IMG/VR virus record: IMGVR_UViG_2695420746_000012
Source: a virus
Lineage: Duplodnaviria; Heunggongvirae; Uroviricota; Caudoviricetes
Length of the DNA stretch: 4,543 nucleotides
Direction: 5' to 3' (one strand)
Position numbers and translations under genes: made by a program. The notes below the pieces were generated by a model. That model did no database searches, was not told the DNA's origin, and saw only the letters and a list, made by a program, of their open reading frames with translations. Positions 1 to 4,543 of the stretch are shown here, one piece after another (the first letter of the stretch is position 1; each line of letters opens with the position of its first letter).

Positions 1-11
1 CGCGTTATTAG

Positions 12-55
12 TTATCTTATTCTCAAATTGTGTTACGATAATCCGAGCGGATAAT
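12..55 (+). promoter_or_regulatory. Candidate telN promoter elements (uncertain)
   Basis: Two GATAAT hexamers (37-42 and 50-55) lie within a GATAATC direct repeat (37-43, 50-56). TTGTGT at 28-33 is a possible -35 for the second one with a 16-bp spacer, but that would start transcription inside the telN Shine-Dalgarno, so the true promoter may lie upstream of the window. Confidence 0.2.
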
Positions 56-68
56 CAGGAGAGGAAAG

Positions 69-1964
69 ATGAGCAAAGTAAAAATCGGTGAATTAATAAA
101 CTCACTTGTTAGCGATGTTGAGTCAATAGATAACTCTGACCGTCCTCAAGGGGAAAAAACAAAAAAAATAAAGGCTGTTGCATTAAAATTTAAAAATGCA
201 TTATTTAATGACAAGCGAAAGTTTAGGGGGAAAGGATTAGAAAAAAGAATTACAGCCAACACATTCAATGCCTATATGAGCAGGGCCAGAAAACGGTTTG
301 ATGATAAACTTCATCATAGCTTTGAAAAAAATATACATCGCCTATCTGAAAAGTATCCTTTATATAATGAGGAGCTATTGTCATGGCTTTCTCTACCTGC
401 TGCCGATATTCGCCAAAGAATGTCAGCTTTACAGACAAAATTAAAATTAATTCTCCCTTTATCAGAAGATTTATCTAATATAAGAATTGGTGATAACAAA
501 AGTCATAATAAGTTATTAAAATTATCAAATAAATATAAAGAGTGGCAATTCGCCATTTCTGATTTAACTAGCGATAACTGGAAAGATAAGCGCGATTATT
601 TATATAAATTACTACAGCAAGGATCTGCCTTACTTGAGGAGTTGAATCAGCTAAAAGTTAACCATGAGATTCTCTATCATCTTCAACTAAGCCCTGCCGA
701 ACGAGCATCTATCCAGCAACGATGGGCGGACGTTCTGCACAATAAGAAACGTAACGTGGTGGTCATTGATTACCCTAAATATATGCAAGCTATTTACGAT
801 ATTATAAATAGCCCTGCTACATTAAATAATCTAAACACTCGTTCAGGTATGGCTCCTTTGGCATTTGCACTTGCTGCATTGTCAGGAAGACGAATGATTG
901 AGATTATGTATCAAGGTACATTTACTGTTTCTGGTAAGTATACCGTTGATTTTTTAGGCCAAGCTAAAAAAAGAACTTCTGATGATATAACCAGAAAAAT
1001 ATATACATTATGCGAAGCAAAAACATTTGTTTATTTAATAAATGTACTTCGCTCATGCCCAGCAGCATCTGATTTTGATGATGTCGTTAAAGGTTATGGA
1101 GATAACGACACACGCTCTGAAAACGGACGTATTAATGCCATATTAGCAAAGGCTTTTAACCCGTGGGTTAAATCATTTTTCAAAGATGACCGCCGTGTTT
1201 ATAAAGATAGTCGTGCTATTTATGCCCGTATTGCGTATGAAATGTTTTTCCGCGTAGATCCTCGTTGGAAAAACGTAGATGAGGATGTTTTCTTTATGGA
1301 AATTTTAGGCCATGACGATGAAAACACTCAATTACACTATAAGCAATTCAAGCTGGCCAACTTCTCAAAGACATGGAGGCCAAATACTGGAAACGAAAAT
1401 ACCAGGCTGGAAGCATTGCAGCAGCTTGATGACAAAATGCCTGGATTCGCCAGAGGAGATGCCGGGGTTCGTCTGCATAACACAGTTAAGCAGCTGGTAG
1501 AGCAGGACCCCTCTATAAAAATCACGAACAGCACTCTAAGAGCATTCAAATTTAGCCCAACAATGATTAGTCGATACCTGGAATTTGCTGCTGATGCTCT
1601 GGGGCAATTTGTTGGCGAAAATGGACAATGGCAGCTGAAAATAGATACTCCAGAAATCGTTATGCCTGACGAAGAAGAGCTGGTAGCAATACCTGAACAG
1701 ACGGATGAATTATCAGAGGATGACGATCTGGATGACGACGAAATTGAGATAGAGGAAGAGGAAGAGGAAGAGAGCGTAGAAGAACAGCAACCGCCCGCGC
1801 CTTCTTCACCTGTATCTAAGCCGGTATTTAAGCCTGTGAGAAATATTGGTGATGGCTCATACGTTGTTGAGTTTCATTATAATGGCCAGAATTATGCTTG
1901 GTCCGGCAGTGCAAACAGCCCTATGTCAGCAATGCAGTTAGCATGGCTGACATATTTCGGATAA
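69..1964 (+). CDS. telN: Protelomerase (telomere resolvase) TelN, N15 family
   Basis: 631-aa ORF with Shine-Dalgarno AGGAGAGGA at 57-65 before the ATG at 69. From memory it matches phage N15 TelN along its whole length, including MSKVKIGELI at the N-terminus, SRAIYARIAYEMFFRVDPRW, and the C-terminal YAWSG motif. Tyr424 (LHYKQF), Arg275, Lys300 and His415 sit at positions I recall as TelN active-site residues. An acidic Glu/Asp-rich linker precedes the C-terminal domain, as in TelN/TelK. Confidence 0.95.
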   Translation: MSKVKIGELINSLVSDVESIDNSDRPQGEKTKKIKAVALKFKNALFNDKRKFRGKGLEKRITANTFNAYMSRARKRFDDKLHHSFEKNIHRLSEKYPLYNEELLSWLSLPAADIRQRMSALQTKLKLILPLSEDLSNIRIGDNKSHNKLLKLSNKYKEWQFAISDLTSDNWKDKRDYLYKLLQQGSALLEELNQLKVNHEILYHLQLSPAERASIQQRWADVLHNKKRNVVVIDYPKYMQAIYDIINSPATLNNLNTRSGMAPLAFALAALSGRRMIEIMYQGTFTVSGKYTVDFLGQAKKRTSDDITRKIYTLCEAKTFVYLINVLRSCPAASDFDDVVKGYGDNDTRSENGRINAILAKAFNPWVKSFFKDDRRVYKDSRAIYARIAYEMFFRVDPRWKNVDEDVFFMEILGHDDENTQLHYKQFKLANFSKTWRPNTGNENTRLEALQQLDDKMPGFARGDAGVRLHNTVKQLVEQDPSIKITNSTLRAFKFSPTMISRYLEFAADALGQFVGENGQWQLKIDTPEIVMPDEEELVAIPEQTDELSEDDDLDDDEIEIEEEEEEESVEEQQPPAPSSPVSKPVFKPVRNIGDGSYVVEFHYNGQNYAWSGSANSPMSAMQLAWLTYFG

Positions 1965-1975
1965 AGCATACGGTA

Positions 1976-2008
1976 AAGGCACCGAATTATCGGTGCCTTG
2001 TTGTGTTG
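1976..2008. terminator. Intrinsic terminator hairpin between convergent telN and the antirepressor remnant
   Basis: Perfect 10-bp inverted repeat AAGGCACCGA (1976-1985) / TCGGTGCCTT (1990-1999) with loop ATTA, followed on the + strand by the T-rich GTTGTGTTG (2000-2008). It starts 12 bp after the telN stop; on the - strand it is followed by the weaker TTTACCGTATGCTTTAT. Confidence 0.6.
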
Positions 2009-2009
2009 C

Positions 2010-2174
2010 CTACCTCGCCTGCCCCTTTTCGTCCTCATCAAACTTTCTGATGGCCGTAGAATCAATACCCGACGCCATACACACATCAGATGCAACAAAC
2101 CACGGTTCGCCGTTAATCATCACTACACGAACCTGATGCTCTTCCGGAAAGGAAAAGACTGCTAACGCGCTCAT
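2010..2174 (-). pseudogene. Truncated phage antirepressor, BRO-N/Ant N-terminal domain fragment (54 aa)
   Basis: My own translation of the - strand (below the ORF track's length cutoff): MSALAVFSFPEEHQVRVVMINGEPWFVASDVCMASGIDSTAIRKFDEDEKGQAR. It carries the BRO-N hallmark (FxF...R-hydrophobic-I-[DN]-GEPWFVA-DV...DDEKG) and has a strong Shine-Dalgarno AAGGAGG (2180-2186, - strand) 5 nt before the ATG at 2174. It stops at 2010-2012, right against the telN terminator hairpin, whereas full antirepressors are roughly 200-300 aa. Confidence 0.6.
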
Positions 2175-2404
2175 TCAGCCTCCTTATCGTGCAGCAATTG
2201 CGACGAGAGCGATGCTGAATACCCCTGTGCTTCGTGTGTTAGCTCACACGCAATTTGAAGGAGTTTCCCTGCTTCTGAGAGATAAATCGACGCCTCACAA
2301 CTGGAGATTGTCCGATGGGCTGATGATACGAGCGCATAGACCTGAGCCAGACGTTCATCCAACGATTCCAGCAGGCCAACAGTGTTCATTTTTACCTGAT
2401 TCAT
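2171..2404 (-). CDS. Hypothetical 77-aa protein, translationally coupled upstream of the antirepressor fragment (Icd-like by position only)
   Basis: ORF with Shine-Dalgarno GAGGTGG about 6 nt before the ATG at 2404. Its TGA stop overlaps the antirepressor ATG (ATGA at 2171-2174). No sequence family recognised; the placement matches icd in P1 immI / N15 immA. Confidence 0.5.
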   Translation of the reverse strand: MNQVKMNTVGLLESLDERLAQVYALVSSAHRTISSCEASIYLSEAGKLLQIACELTHEAQGYSASLSSQLLHDKEAE

Positions 2405-2565
2405 GCAGCCACCTCGCGCACCGGAATACGGGCAGACAATACCAGGACAAACCGGCTGGCGAACTGGCGACGAGCTTCCCGTTCAGATGACGCGATAGTG
2501 GAAAGATGATGGATGTGTGACTTTTTGTCTGTGCGAACGACTGCCGCAAATTTGAATTTGAACAT
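2401..2565 (-). CDS. Small leader ORF (54 aa from ATG 2565), ORFx-like, coupled to the next gene
   Basis: The ORF track starts this frame at a GTG (2613) inside an RNA hairpin; the first ATG is at 2565 with a weak AAGAG Shine-Dalgarno. Its TGA stop overlaps the ATG of the 77-aa ORF (ATGA at 2401-2404). Protein from the ATG: MFKFKFAAVVRTDKKSHIHHLSTIASSEREARRQFASRFVLVLSARIPVREVAA. Whether it is translated is uncertain. Confidence 0.3.
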   Translation of the reverse strand: MFKFKFAAVVRTDKKSHIHHLSTIASSEREARRQFASRFVLVLSARIPVREVAA

Positions 2566-2589
2566 GGTATGCACTCTTGTTTGGAAGAA

Positions 2590-2700
2590 CAGTGCTACCA
2601 CCAGAGTTCTCACGCTCTAAGGGGGTGGTAGCCCAGACGGGGGTGAGAATACCGGCCCAAACGATACCGGCCAGCCTTTCGGCTGCCCCGCCTGAGCCAC
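2590..2700 (-). ncRNA. Candidate structured regulatory RNA / leader (c4/CI/CA-like immunity RNA region); boundaries approximate
   Basis: In - strand sense: a 5-bp hairpin with GAAA tetraloop (CAGCC-GAAA-GGCTG, + coordinates 2672-2685); a 9-bp stem GCTACCACC/GGTGGTAGC (2594-2602 / 2624-2632) enclosing a 4-bp hairpin with loop CGUGAGAA; and a single-stranded UUCUCAC (2643-2649) complementary to that loop. It sits directly upstream of the ORFx-like RBS. Confidence 0.3.
2606..2615 (-). repeat. 10-nt motif GCGTGAGAAC (- sense), copy 2, in a hairpin loop (stem AGAG/CTCT, 2603-2618)
   Basis: Exact 10-mer also present at 2780-2789. Here it lies in the loop of a 4-bp hairpin nested within the 9-bp stem 2594-2632. 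Confidence 0.5.
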
Positions 2701-2730
2701 CATAATTCGGATATGCGCAGGCTTATATAC

Positions 2731-2757
2731 ACACAAAAAAACACGCTGGCGCGTGTT
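2731..2757 (-). terminator. Intrinsic terminator within the leader of the antirepressor operon
   Basis: - strand: 7-bp stem (+ coordinates 2740-2746 / 2751-2757, AACACGC/GCGTGTT), loop of 4 nt, followed by UUUUUGUGU (+ strand A-run 2733-2739). It lies between the two GCGTGAGAAC hairpins. Confidence 0.45.
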
Positions 2758-2776
2758 GTGCGTCGCTTGGGATATT

Positions 2777-2792
2777 CGGGTTCTCACGCCCG
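2777..2792 (-). repeat. 10-nt motif GCGTGAGAAC (- sense), copy 1, in a hairpin loop (stem CGGG/CCCG)
   Basis: Exact 10-mer at 2780-2789, flanked by the 4-bp inverted repeat CGGG (2777-2780) / CCCG (2789-2792). Same loop as copy 2 but a different stem sequence, i.e. compensatory pairing. Confidence 0.5.
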
Positions 2793-2812
2793 GCTGCGGG
2801 ATTTACCGCAGC
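2793..2812. promoter_or_regulatory. Operator-like palindrome GCTGCGG-N6-CCGCAGC
   Basis: 7-bp perfect inverted repeat separated by 6 bp (GATTTA), immediately downstream (- sense) of the candidate promoter. Could be a repressor operator or the 5' hairpin of the leader RNA. Confidence 0.3.
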
Positions 2813-2818
2813 GGAGTA

Positions 2819-2848
2819 ACTTTACCGTCAAAACGACGCACACGTCAA
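2819..2848 (-). promoter_or_regulatory. Candidate sigma70 promoter for the leader / antirepressor operon
   Basis: - strand -35 TTGACG (+ coordinates 2843-2848), 18-bp spacer, -10 TAAAGT (2819-2824). A second TTGACG at 2826-2831 has no good -10. Weak match, inferred mainly from position. Confidence 0.2.
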
Positions 2849-2868
2849 TAATTTGCAAAGACATTTTA

Positions 2869-2900
2869 CCCCGTGACCAGTCACGGGGACAGGTGTTTTT
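2869..2900. terminator. GC-rich hairpin with flanking A/T runs; probable terminator separating the four-gene operon from the antirepressor module
   Basis: Inverted repeat CCCCGTGA(C) / (G)TCACGGGG (2869-2888). On the + strand it is followed by ACAGGTGTTTTTAT; on the - strand it is preceded by an A-run and followed by TAAAATGTCTTTG. It lies 62 nt downstream of the - strand operon stop (2950), so it plausibly ends that operon, but the U-tract is better in + orientation. Confidence 0.4.
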
Positions 2901-2949
2901 ATAGTTTGCTTGAACGAGTGATCAGAAGTTGATCGTTAATCAAAGGCCA

Positions 2950-3237
2950 TTACGGATTAAGAGAGTGGAAATACCTAACTAACTTACCGGCATCATCACA
3001 TTTTTCTTTATCTTCTTCCTTAACATAGCCGCGACAGAAGGCTGAATAAAATTTCGCATTTTCAGAAGCAAAAGCAGCCGTCGAAAGGAGCAGTTCTTTG
3101 CATGATTCTTTTGATGCAGCATCGGGATTATTTTTACATGCAAGCTCCGCTGATGAGTTAATAACAGAAATGCTATCTTCCTGGGCATAAACCGCAGCAG
3201 AAAAGGCAAAACATAAAACCAAAATAAAACTCTTCAC
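2950..3237 (-). CDS. Small secreted protein (95 aa, predicted signal peptide, 4 Cys in mature part), unknown function
   Basis: The ORF track begins this frame at a GTG (3261) with no Shine-Dalgarno. A GTG at 3237 is preceded by a strong AGGAG (3243-3247) with a 5-nt spacer, giving MKSFILVLCFAFSAAVYA|QEDS..., a typical Sec signal peptide. The mature part is Lys/Glu-rich with four cysteines. Last gene of the operon. Confidence 0.55.
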   Translation of the reverse strand: MKSFILVLCFAFSAAVYAQEDSISVINSSAELACKNNPDAASKESCKELLLSTAAFASENAKFYSAFCRGYVKEEDKEKCDDAGKLVRYFHSLNP

Positions 3238-3257
3238 TTTATCTCCTGTAACAGTTA

Positions 3258-3659
3258 TCACAACTCAATCAACTTTTTAGCATCAGCCATACGCTTCAAC
3301 CAGTAATCAACAATCGGTTGCTCATCCACAGAATGTTTACCTGGTATAACTCGCCAGCTGTCTGCCGAAAGGCTACCGTATCTATGCGGGAAAAGGCATT
3401 TCTTTAGCTCCTGCCATGTGCTAGGAAAACCGTCTGCCAAAGTGCCAATTAACAGAAAAGGGACAAAAATCAGGGCTACAAACCATCGGGCAAGAAAGTG
3501 CTCAACAATAACCTCTTCACCGTTATAGTAATACGCATACGTATCCCATATACGAATTTTCCTTACCCTAAAAATGGCCTTATGCTGAGAACGACTTAGC
3601 TTGATGCGAATGTATCCCTTATCCAAGAGGGATTGGTGTTTGTATGATTGAACAGCCAT
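3258..3659 (-). CDS. Hypothetical membrane protein (133 aa from ATG 3659; one central TM helix)
   Basis: The track starts this frame at a GTG (3671) overlapping the upstream gene; the first ATG (3659) is 2 nt after the upstream stop and is preceded by GTGGGG. It has a basic N-terminal region (IRIKLSRSQHKAIFRVRKIRIW) and a hydrophobic segment WFVALIFVPFLLIGTLADGF. No family recognised. Confidence 0.5.
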   Translation of the reverse strand: MAVQSYKHQSLLDKGYIRIKLSRSQHKAIFRVRKIRIWDTYAYYYNGEEVIVEHFLARWFVALIFVPFLLIGTLADGFPSTWQELKKCLFPHRYGSLSADSWRVIPGKHSVDEQPIVDYWLKRMADAKKLIEL

Positions 3660-3661
3660 TT

Positions 3662-3988
3662 TTAACCCCACTCACCATCAGCAAACAAAGCGTTATACTC
3701 TGACAATGGTAGACGGTTGCCCTCGATGTAGAGATTCAGTTCATACTTCGTCTCCGGGTTTTCCTTGTCGGCTCGTTCCCAACGCTCAGCAGCCTTACAC
3801 GCCAATAATTCCACTGCTTTCAGATAATCCTCCGTACGGAACCAGCCAAAGATAAGGCCACGATCTGTTACAGCCCAGGCAACCTTTTTTTCTTCCTCCT
3901 GGATAGCCTTAATGCGTCGATCGCATTCATCCCGGCAAAACTGCAGCTGACGGTAATCAAGTTTGTCCAAAAATGCAGTAGTAGACAT
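3662..3988 (-). CDS. Hypothetical soluble protein (108 aa)
   Basis: ATG at 3988 preceded by Shine-Dalgarno GGGGAG, which lies in the last codons of the upstream gene, 4 nt after its stop. No hydrophobic segment; charged and helical-looking. No family recognised. Confidence 0.55.
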   Translation of the reverse strand: MSTTAFLDKLDYRQLQFCRDECDRRIKAIQEEEKKVAWAVTDRGLIFGWFRTEDYLKAVELLACKAAERWERADKENPETKYELNLYIEGNRLPLSEYNALFADGEWG

Positions 3989-3992
3989 ATTT

Positions 3993-4184
3993 TTACTCCC
4001 CGTTCACCGAAAAATCACGATAGAAACATTTCCACATACGATAAGTCTGCGCGAGTTGTTCACCACGAAACATCGCCTTCCTGGCCTTCATGTTTTCCTT
4101 GTGAGACTTTCGATCTATGAACCAAAACCATTGCTGGAACACACAAAGCAAGAGACACAAAGATAATATCCACTGATTACCCAT
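3993..4184 (-). CDS. Hypothetical small membrane protein (63 aa, N-terminal TM helix)
   Basis: Taking the ATG at 4184: MGNQWILSLCLLLCVFQQWFWFIDRK..., an N-terminal hydrophobic helix followed by a basic tail. The Shine-Dalgarno is weak (AGGG about 9 nt upstream). The same frame stays open upstream across the IS2 boundary, so the true 5' end is uncertain and the gene may be IS-truncated. Confidence 0.4.
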   Translation of the reverse strand: MGNQWILSLCLLLCVFQQWFWFIDRKSHKENMKARKAMFRGEQLAQTYRMWKCFYRDFSVNGE

Positions 4185-4220
4185 AGAAAGCGCCCTGCTC
4201 TTCGTAGCTGCATGGGCTAT

Positions 4221-4261
4221 TAGACTGGCCCCCTGAATCTCCAGACAACCAGTATCACTTA
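4221..4261 (+). repeat. IS2 left terminal inverted repeat (IRL), approximate extent
   Basis: Terminal approximately 41 bp of IS2 beginning TAGACTGGCCCCC; the right-hand copy lies outside the window. Confidence 0.7.
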
Positions 4262-4311
4262 AATAAGTGATAGTCTTAATACTAGTTTTTAGACTAGTCA
4301 TTGGAGTACAG

Positions 4312-4543
4312 ATGATTGATGTCTTAGGGCCGGAGAAACGCAGACGGCGTACCACACAGGAAAAGATCGCAATTGTTCAGCAGAGCTTTGAACCGGGGAT
4401 GACGGTCTCCCTCGTTGCCCGGCAACATGGTGTAGCAGCCAGCCAGTTATTTCTCTGGCGTAAGCAATACCAGGAAGGAAGTCTTACTGCTGTGGCCGCC
4501 GGAGAACAGGTTGTTCCTGCCTCTGAACTTGCTGCCGCCATGA
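4312..4543 (+). CDS. insC: IS2 OrfA (transposase regulatory protein InsC), 5' part only
   Basis: ATG at 4312; translation [77 protein letters not shown]... is the IS2 OrfA N-terminus with its helix-turn-helix. The ORF runs off the window end with no stop, which is why it is absent from the ORF track. Confidence 0.9.

Follow-up and report, generated by a model that had tools for sequence, protein, structure and literature searches.

An outer repeat at a fixed distance from the hairpin tip of N15-type phage-plasmids, a candidate accessory protelomerase-occupancy site

The 68 nucleotides that precede a protelomerase gene at the very edge of a viral contig raise two questions: whether the contig begins at the closed hairpin end of a linear replicon, and whether the arm-like repeat found in this leader belongs to the telomere resolution site. 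The window, that is, the whole stretch of 4543 nt analysed here, is the entire draft WGS contig CXCD01000222.1 of the assembly GCA_001260475.1. Its first gene and the corresponding ribosome-binding site are as follows.

57–64, plus strand: Shine-Dalgarno sequence AGGAGAGG of telN, 4 nt 5' of the ATG at position 69; a conserved purine block in the alignment.
69–1964, plus strand: telN, a protelomerase of 631 aa with the Pfam domains TelK_N, muzzle, ResT-TelK_cat and stirrup (all four protelomerase domains).

At the amino acid level, TelN of the window is 77.8% identical to N15 TelN and 73.1% identical to phiKO2 TelK. The nearest complete record is the E. coli plasmid CP056845.1 (locus L001 in our numbering), with 99.9% identity across window positions 1–4221; the phages PhiR46_1 (96.0%) and YDC107_1 (96.6%) are also close. 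Downstream of telN, the minus strand carries the usual N15-type genes and RNAs. The leader had been described as telomere-proximal and 5' of telN, and it indeed lies in the tos region of an N15-type phage-plasmid: the sequence is what a tos/telN leader should look like in a common N15-like phage-plasmid of E. coli, shortened by draft assembly.

Several observations concern the rest of the window. Two RNAs on the minus strand score above the Rfam gathering score, the C4 antisense RNA (RF01695, 75.2 bits) at 2621–2707 and isrK (RF01394, 67 bits) at 2736–2812. This stretch, with 83% similarity to the P4 cI region, is the secondary-immunity RNA region, 'cA' of N15 and P4 cI-like; in some records it is annotated as an 'ash family protein' ORF. 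The 54-aa ORF at 2010–2174 (minus strand) matches a Bro-N domain over its initial ~40 residues only, and it is a deletion remnant, since YDC107_1 and like relatives carry a full 777-nt gene of a BRO-family antirepressor in its place. The last part of the window, 4221–4543, is the left end of IS2 starting from base 4221, with 97–99% identity to many IS2 copies; the junction is absent from the phage, plasmid and E. coli complete-genome collections searched. In the alignment with PhiR46_1, where window position 4221 corresponds to position 4358 of the record and the primase/RepA CDS occupies 4314–8309 on the minus strand, the insertion point is in repA, ~45 nt from the 3' end of the gene, and IS2 may have truncated the C-terminus of this prophage replication gene.

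The window starts with CGCGT, as stated in the preliminary description, which took CGCG for the right half of a central palindrome in a record starting at the hairpin tip. Base 1 would then be the covalently closed tip and CGCGT the right half of TACGCG/CGCGTA. All that speaks for this is the CGCG at the start and telN close by. In all three close relatives (CP056845.1, PhiR46_1 and YDC107_1; 96–99.9% identical), the sequence runs on beyond window base 1 for 123 nt up to the telO centre, and the 22-bp telO palindrome of these relatives, CCATTATACGC/GCGTATAATGG, is identical to that of N15. Across the dyad centre, CP056845.1 reads ...CCCCATTATACGC/GCGTATAATGGGGAATTATGTGCTGATTTT..., while the PhiR46_1 record begins with an annotated 'telL site', CCATTATACGCGCGTATAATGG, and YDC107_1 is a perfect fold-back about the same centre. 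The first bases of the window, CGCGTTATTAG, are 123 nt from the telO centre, and bases 1–20 do not match the telO half-site GCGTATAATGG. Moreover, the window is a draft WGS contig, an independent assembly stops 4 nt away, and related contigs start 13–245 nt 5' of telN with no fixed end. We therefore reject a hairpin tip at base 1, to which we would give practically no chance: in the relatives, telO is centred 123 nt farther upstream, and the contig ends where it does because of draft assembly. The 123 nt between base 1 and the tip are unassembled. What the contig begins with is the following feature.

1–7, unstranded: CGCGTTA, the contig-end remnant of the 10-bp mini-palindrome TAACGCGTTA; relatives read ...GTTAACGCGTTATTAG... 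here.

According to the alignment, this mini-palindrome is lineage-specific and has no counterpart in N15 or phiKO2. The spacing had also been thought to differ from that of N15, which turned out to be mistaken, the distance from the telO centre to the ATG being 191 nt here vs. 192 nt in N15 and 189–192 nt in most lineages. Within ~300 bp upstream of telN, the relatives do carry a palindrome, of 42–58 bp and 191 nt 5' of the gene.

The independent assembly mentioned above is the Logan assembly of the run ERR025705, which contains the same locus with the telN end 4 nt further in. Thus ERR025705_133 (L079) and the window end 64 and 68 nt 5' of telN, respectively, which suggests that the library lacks reads for the ~125 nt next to the hairpin tip; snap-back and poor sequencing of tip-spanning fragments are one possible cause of the missing reads. 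Among the related IMG/VR contigs, those that extend farther than ~191 nt 5' of telN read through the hairpin and mirror themselves, and the shorter ones are truncated. Mirror-image telN copies from such read-through are present in several public 'complete' phage or viral-contig records, namely L003 (YDC107_1, CP025712.1; 787–2686), L018/L073, L032/L033, L034 and L051/L072, and the read-through records are perfect palindromes of at least 109–111 nt per arm. The annotation of YDC107_1 presents its mirror copy as additional 'protelomerase' and 'protelomerase domain protein' genes. These copies are assembly fold-back artefacts, not biology. Annotators of this group could use a simple rule: the tip is 189–192 nt 5' of the telN ATG, any contig reaching farther is a fold-back artefact, and any that stops short is truncated. 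In the circularised record CP056845.1 (2857–2898), the telRL palindrome is perfect over only 21 nt per arm; its left arm is AACGAAACATAATT, while the mirror of R3 would be TCAGCACATAATT. Judging by these arms, L3 of this lineage is much more degenerate than that of N15, where the 28-nt arms are 93% complementary.

The second question concerns the repeat in the middle of the leader, for which three features are needed.

20–24, plus strand: TTCTC, a moderately conserved block just 5' of the repeat, from the consensus of the 36-arm alignment, where most lineages have TTCT; the 29-nt R1 arm of N15 includes it.
27–41, plus strand: ATTGTGTTACGATAA, located +150 from the telO centre and, on the telR side, the farthest out of the co-oriented tos repeats; 14/14 identical to N15; candidate accessory protelomerase-occupancy site.
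31–39, plus strand: core TGTTACGAT; apart from telO, no 9-mer of the telR arm is better conserved. It can also be read as an extended −10 (TG-n-TACGAT) for telN.

The resemblance of 27–41 to the N15 arms had been proposed on the basis of the N15 arm ATTGTGTGCTGATA, which is correct when compared with the N15 sequence. By itself, this resemblance is only modestly above chance. Positions 27–40 match the N15 R3 arm ATTGTGTGCTGATA at 11 of 14 positions and R3 of their own lineage at 9 of 14. When scored with a PWM of nine R3 arm variants, the site at 27 reaches 9.3, ranking fourth among 9060 window positions, and an equal or better site occurs in 104 of 5000 shuffles of bases 1–68 (p ~0.02). The same PWM gives 14.7, vs. 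9.3 for the site at 27, to TTTGTTTGCTGATG at 3676–3689 (minus strand) in the ORF 3662–3988, which is probably a chance match. The resemblance at 27–41 is convincing because the repeat is orthologous to an N15 repeat in both sequence and position. The alignment with N15 telRL makes it the orthologue of the outermost arm-like repeat of N15: the 14-mer ATTGTGTTACGATA (1453–1466 in N15, L004) is identical, has the same +150 distance to the telO centre in N15 and in the window lineage, and lies 43 nt 5' of the telN ATG in N15 vs. 42 nt here.

In N15 (L004), a 29-nt inverted pair (1125–1153/1444–1472, 86%, 290 nt apart) brackets telRL and holds the motif in its right arm, while a second inverted pair (1197–1213/1364–1380) contains the +69 copy. 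We take these pairs to be L1/R1 and L2/R2, in which case 27–41 would be R1; the labels R1 and R2 are assigned here from the inverted-repeat pairs found in N15. The tos site spans ~310 bp, and a 2025 paper describes its L1/L2 and R1/R2 repeats as degenerate L3/R3 copies through which CTD1 may bring in several TelN molecules (PMC12624138). The tosROC-2 primer, used for N15 tos PCR by the Ravin/Lucigen groups, ends in the reverse complement of GTGTTACGATATCCAGAGAC (PMC2847241), and the motif is therefore inside the operational tos. A mirror partner exists in the left arm of CP056845.1 as well (2712–2726 vs. 3020–3034, 15 nt, 80%); it includes the exact pair AACACAAT/ATTGTGTT, and the PWM places a site at −159.

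Compared with the N15 tos as a whole (telO with L3/R3, flanked by L1/L2 and R1/R2), the window lineage shares the telO 22-mer, the 191 vs. 192 nt spacing, ATTGTGTTACGATA at +150, the co-oriented copies at +15, +69 and +93, and the inverted partner in the left arm. It differs in the R3 arm, ATTATGTGCTGATT here vs. ATTGTGTGCTGATA in N15, and in the DNA outside the conserved blocks, which has diverged to the point that this region has no megablast match to N15. It also adds the dyad TAATCCG-AG-CGGATAA and the mini-palindrome TAACGCGTTA, and the window itself contains the outermost repeat only, without telO. phiKO2 and the Klebsiella N15-like phage-plasmids have the same four-copy layout, with TTTGTGTTATGATG 41 nt 5' of telK and the core at +154, although this core is TGTTATGAT, an extra inverted copy abuts R3 at +29, and TelK is 73% identical to TelN of the window. 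In PY54 telRL, GGGTTACGATAAAG is found 45 nt 5' of tel and GGTTAC-type copies occur on both arms; however, the arm is only 140 nt long, the palindrome is another one, the copy corresponds to +97, and the protelomerase is 43% identical. A part in processing in vivo has been proposed for the flanking 15-bp inverted repeat of PY54 (PMC10612081).

Between the repeat and the start codon, the sequence contains a further element.

39–54, unstranded: imperfect dyad TAATCCG-AG-CGGATAA (6/7 in the arms, 2-nt spacer) between the repeat and the Shine-Dalgarno sequence, holding both GATAATC copies; lineage-specific.

The direct repeat of GATAATC at 37–43 and 50–56, pointed out earlier, is present in the sequence. 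In the alignment, it is lineage-specific, and the dyad is absent from the N15 and phiKO2 lineages. By a rough estimate, the probability of a chance 7-mer repeat within 68 nt is ~1/10. The pair looks like an overlap of two separately conserved blocks, the repeat tail ACGATAAT and the block before the Shine-Dalgarno sequence, GAnAAnCAGGAG, which holds the second GATAATC and is moderately conserved. As the repeat is lineage-specific and plausibly due to chance or to the overlap of conserved blocks, we reject it as a functional unit. In CP056845.1, CGGATAAT pairs with ATTATCCG 80 nt upstream.

The conservation of the arm was assessed on 36 distinct right arms, taken from the telO centre to the start codon in phage records and IMG/VR contigs, with protelomerases 50–99.9% identical; the scan of genome contigs comprised three loci only. 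Conservation figures refer to one representative per lineage in 14 other lineages, with TelN 50–78% identical. Across these lineages, the core TGTTACGAT is 91% conserved, while the rest of the arm is at 48%; only the telO core (93%) surpasses it, and the R3 core TGTGCTGAT is conserved at 80%. At the TTCTC block, the 9-nt stretch TTCTCAAAT reaches 65% vs. the arm mean of 48%. Few non-coding elements of these replicons are as well conserved as the outer tos repeat, whose distance from the hairpin tip is fixed.

In the window, N15 and phiKO2 lineages, arm-like 8-mers occur at +15 (R3), +68/69, +93 and +150, and the repeat cores are co-oriented at about +19, +73, +97 and +154 from the telO centre. 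All these copies point away from the centre, and opposite-orientation 8-mers with that pattern were not found in the window, N15 and phiKO2 arms. The outer core is at +151 to +155 from the telO centre in 12 of the 14 lineages and once at +162; L065 and L068, the two most distant lineages, have no clear +154 copy. From the outer core to the start codon, the distance varies across lineages between about 12 and 39 nt. The outer motif is only 12–15 nt from the start codon in L046, L064 and L067, and in L057/L059 it is 8 nt away, the 3' half of the motif being the Shine-Dalgarno sequence. Because the distance to the centre is fixed while the gap to the start codon varies, the constraint is tied to the telomere and not to the gene start.

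The motif is also enriched in the arms. Leaving out telO and R3, the 14 right arms contain 36 forward sites with at most two mismatches to TGTTACGAT, vs. 6.8 ± 2.5 in shuffled arms (maximum 17 in 2000 shuffles), and seven reverse sites, vs. 3.0 in shuffles. A looser pattern, ATTRTGTKNNGAT, matches only the R3/L3 arms and these repeats in ~46 kb of loci. The R3 arms of distant lineages read TGTGACGAT, TGTTACTAT, TGTGTCGAT or TGTATCGAT, being one or two changes away from the flank core. R3 has 8.31 matches to the +150 copy of its own lineage vs. 7.72 to those of other lineages (237 of 20000 permutations, phylogeny uncorrected), which may be a weak signal of within-lineage covariation. No within-lineage excess of similarity is seen between the +93 and +150 copies, where 6058 of 20000 permutations reach the observed value. 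The outer repeats are orthologous among lineages, conserved in position, enriched and uniformly oriented.

The core has a possible second meaning. TG-T-TACGAT at 31–39 reads as an extended −10 with TG, A-11 and T-7 in place, starting 38 nt 5' of the telN ATG. In lineages with TelN at least 72% identical, TAYGAT is kept (TATGAT in Klebsiella phages), and the core is 37–39 nt 5' of the ATG. The conserved block could thus simply be the extended −10 of telN, with the transcription start near 46–47 and an incidental resemblance to the arms. With no DNA beyond the hairpin tip of a linear prophage, any promoter of telN has to lie in the 191 bp from the tip to the ATG, and this need would explain why the block is conserved. 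In the N15-like clade, the core TGtTACGAT is the only promoter-like element in this interval; as TGtTACGAT or TGtTATGAT it retains TG, A-11 and T-7, and it stands 37–39 nt before the ATG in all lineages with TelN at least 72% identical. No canonical sigma-70 promoter was found on the plus strand in window 1–400, L001 2600–3100 and N15 1050–1530, nor any other sigma-70-like site on that strand. Since there is no DNA upstream of the tip and the core is 37–39 nt from the ATG, a promoter role is plausible in the N15-like clade.

As a complete explanation of the conserved block, the promoter is nevertheless rather unlikely. The promoter scan found no recognisable −35 for the extended −10 at 31–39. 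The same core is repeated in the same orientation at +73 and +97, again at fixed positions, and these inner copies call for no promoter; a mirror copy exists on the telL side, which in N15 forms a 29-nt inverted pair. Finally, in L046, L057/L059, L064 and L067, the motif is 8–15 nt from the start codon or forms the Shine-Dalgarno sequence, and the distance from telO is kept. Where the motif is 12–15 nt from the ATG, the promoter reading is implausible.

The reading that we favour, with a probability of roughly 0.55, is that 27–41 serves as an accessory protelomerase-occupancy site, which in the N15-like clade would overlap the telN promoter and could mediate autoregulation. The accessory-occupancy part of it has already been floated in the literature, where binding of TelN to the outer repeats was called 'conceivable' (PMC12624138); the promoter overlap and autoregulation are what we would add to it. 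We infer that the protelomerase would be the binder and that the core would have promoter activity. Bases 1–68 make up the third of the right (telR) arm that adjoins telN in an N15-type tos, and 27–41, the outermost of four co-oriented arm-like repeats, would be an accessory protelomerase site of low specificity. Binding at 27–41 would probably occur via the stirrup/CTD1 domain, the reader of the R3 arm, and, together with the inner repeats, would help to assemble several TelN molecules into a nucleoprotein cap at the hairpin. TelN occupying the core would, in the N15-like clade, also throttle telN transcription. Half-sites are bound preferentially by TelK monomers (PMC3575837). On the other hand, a strong functional claim is countered by published results: end protection does not depend on CTD1, efficient recombination requires the 56-bp telRL as its recognition site (PMC12624138), and P840, a relative of PY54, can do without the flanking inverted repeat in vivo (PMC10612081).

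It could also be that another factor, such as IHF, Fis or a phage regulator, binds the repeats and bends the telomere-proximal DNA. The region is AT-rich with phased conserved blocks, and the conservation of the flank core at 91%, compared to 80% in R3, fits a host factor better than a co-evolving phage enzyme. Still, we consider this quite improbable, as inspection of the sequence revealed no match to the IHF consensus, and the strict orientation away from the telO centre points to the protelomerase, as do the similarity to R3 (one or two changes in distant lineages) and the weak covariation within lineages.

The layout of the repeats may be of interest beyond this contig. Enterobacterial telomere phages may share a rigid telR layout of four co-oriented TGT(T/G)ACGAT-type sites (~+19, +73, +97 and +154), kept even where the protelomerase is only 50–57% identical to that of the window, with the outermost site tied to the tip and not to the telN start codon. 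Tentatively, and at less than even odds, we propose that this layout supports a conserved ~160-bp multi-protelomerase cap or loop. For specialists, the value of a follow-up lies in this rigid arrangement of four sites measured from the tip, the outermost of which is better conserved than R3. The well-conserved outer repeat at its fixed distance bears on how TelN shields hairpin ends, and the proposed cap, if real, would offer a testable substrate for the 'higher-order structure' that has been invoked to account for protection from SbcCD (PMC12624138), coupled to the autoregulation of telN. The outer repeat is also relevant to the design of minimal TelN/tos vectors (pJAZZ, doggybone-type DNA and tos-YACs), in which often only 56 bp are kept.
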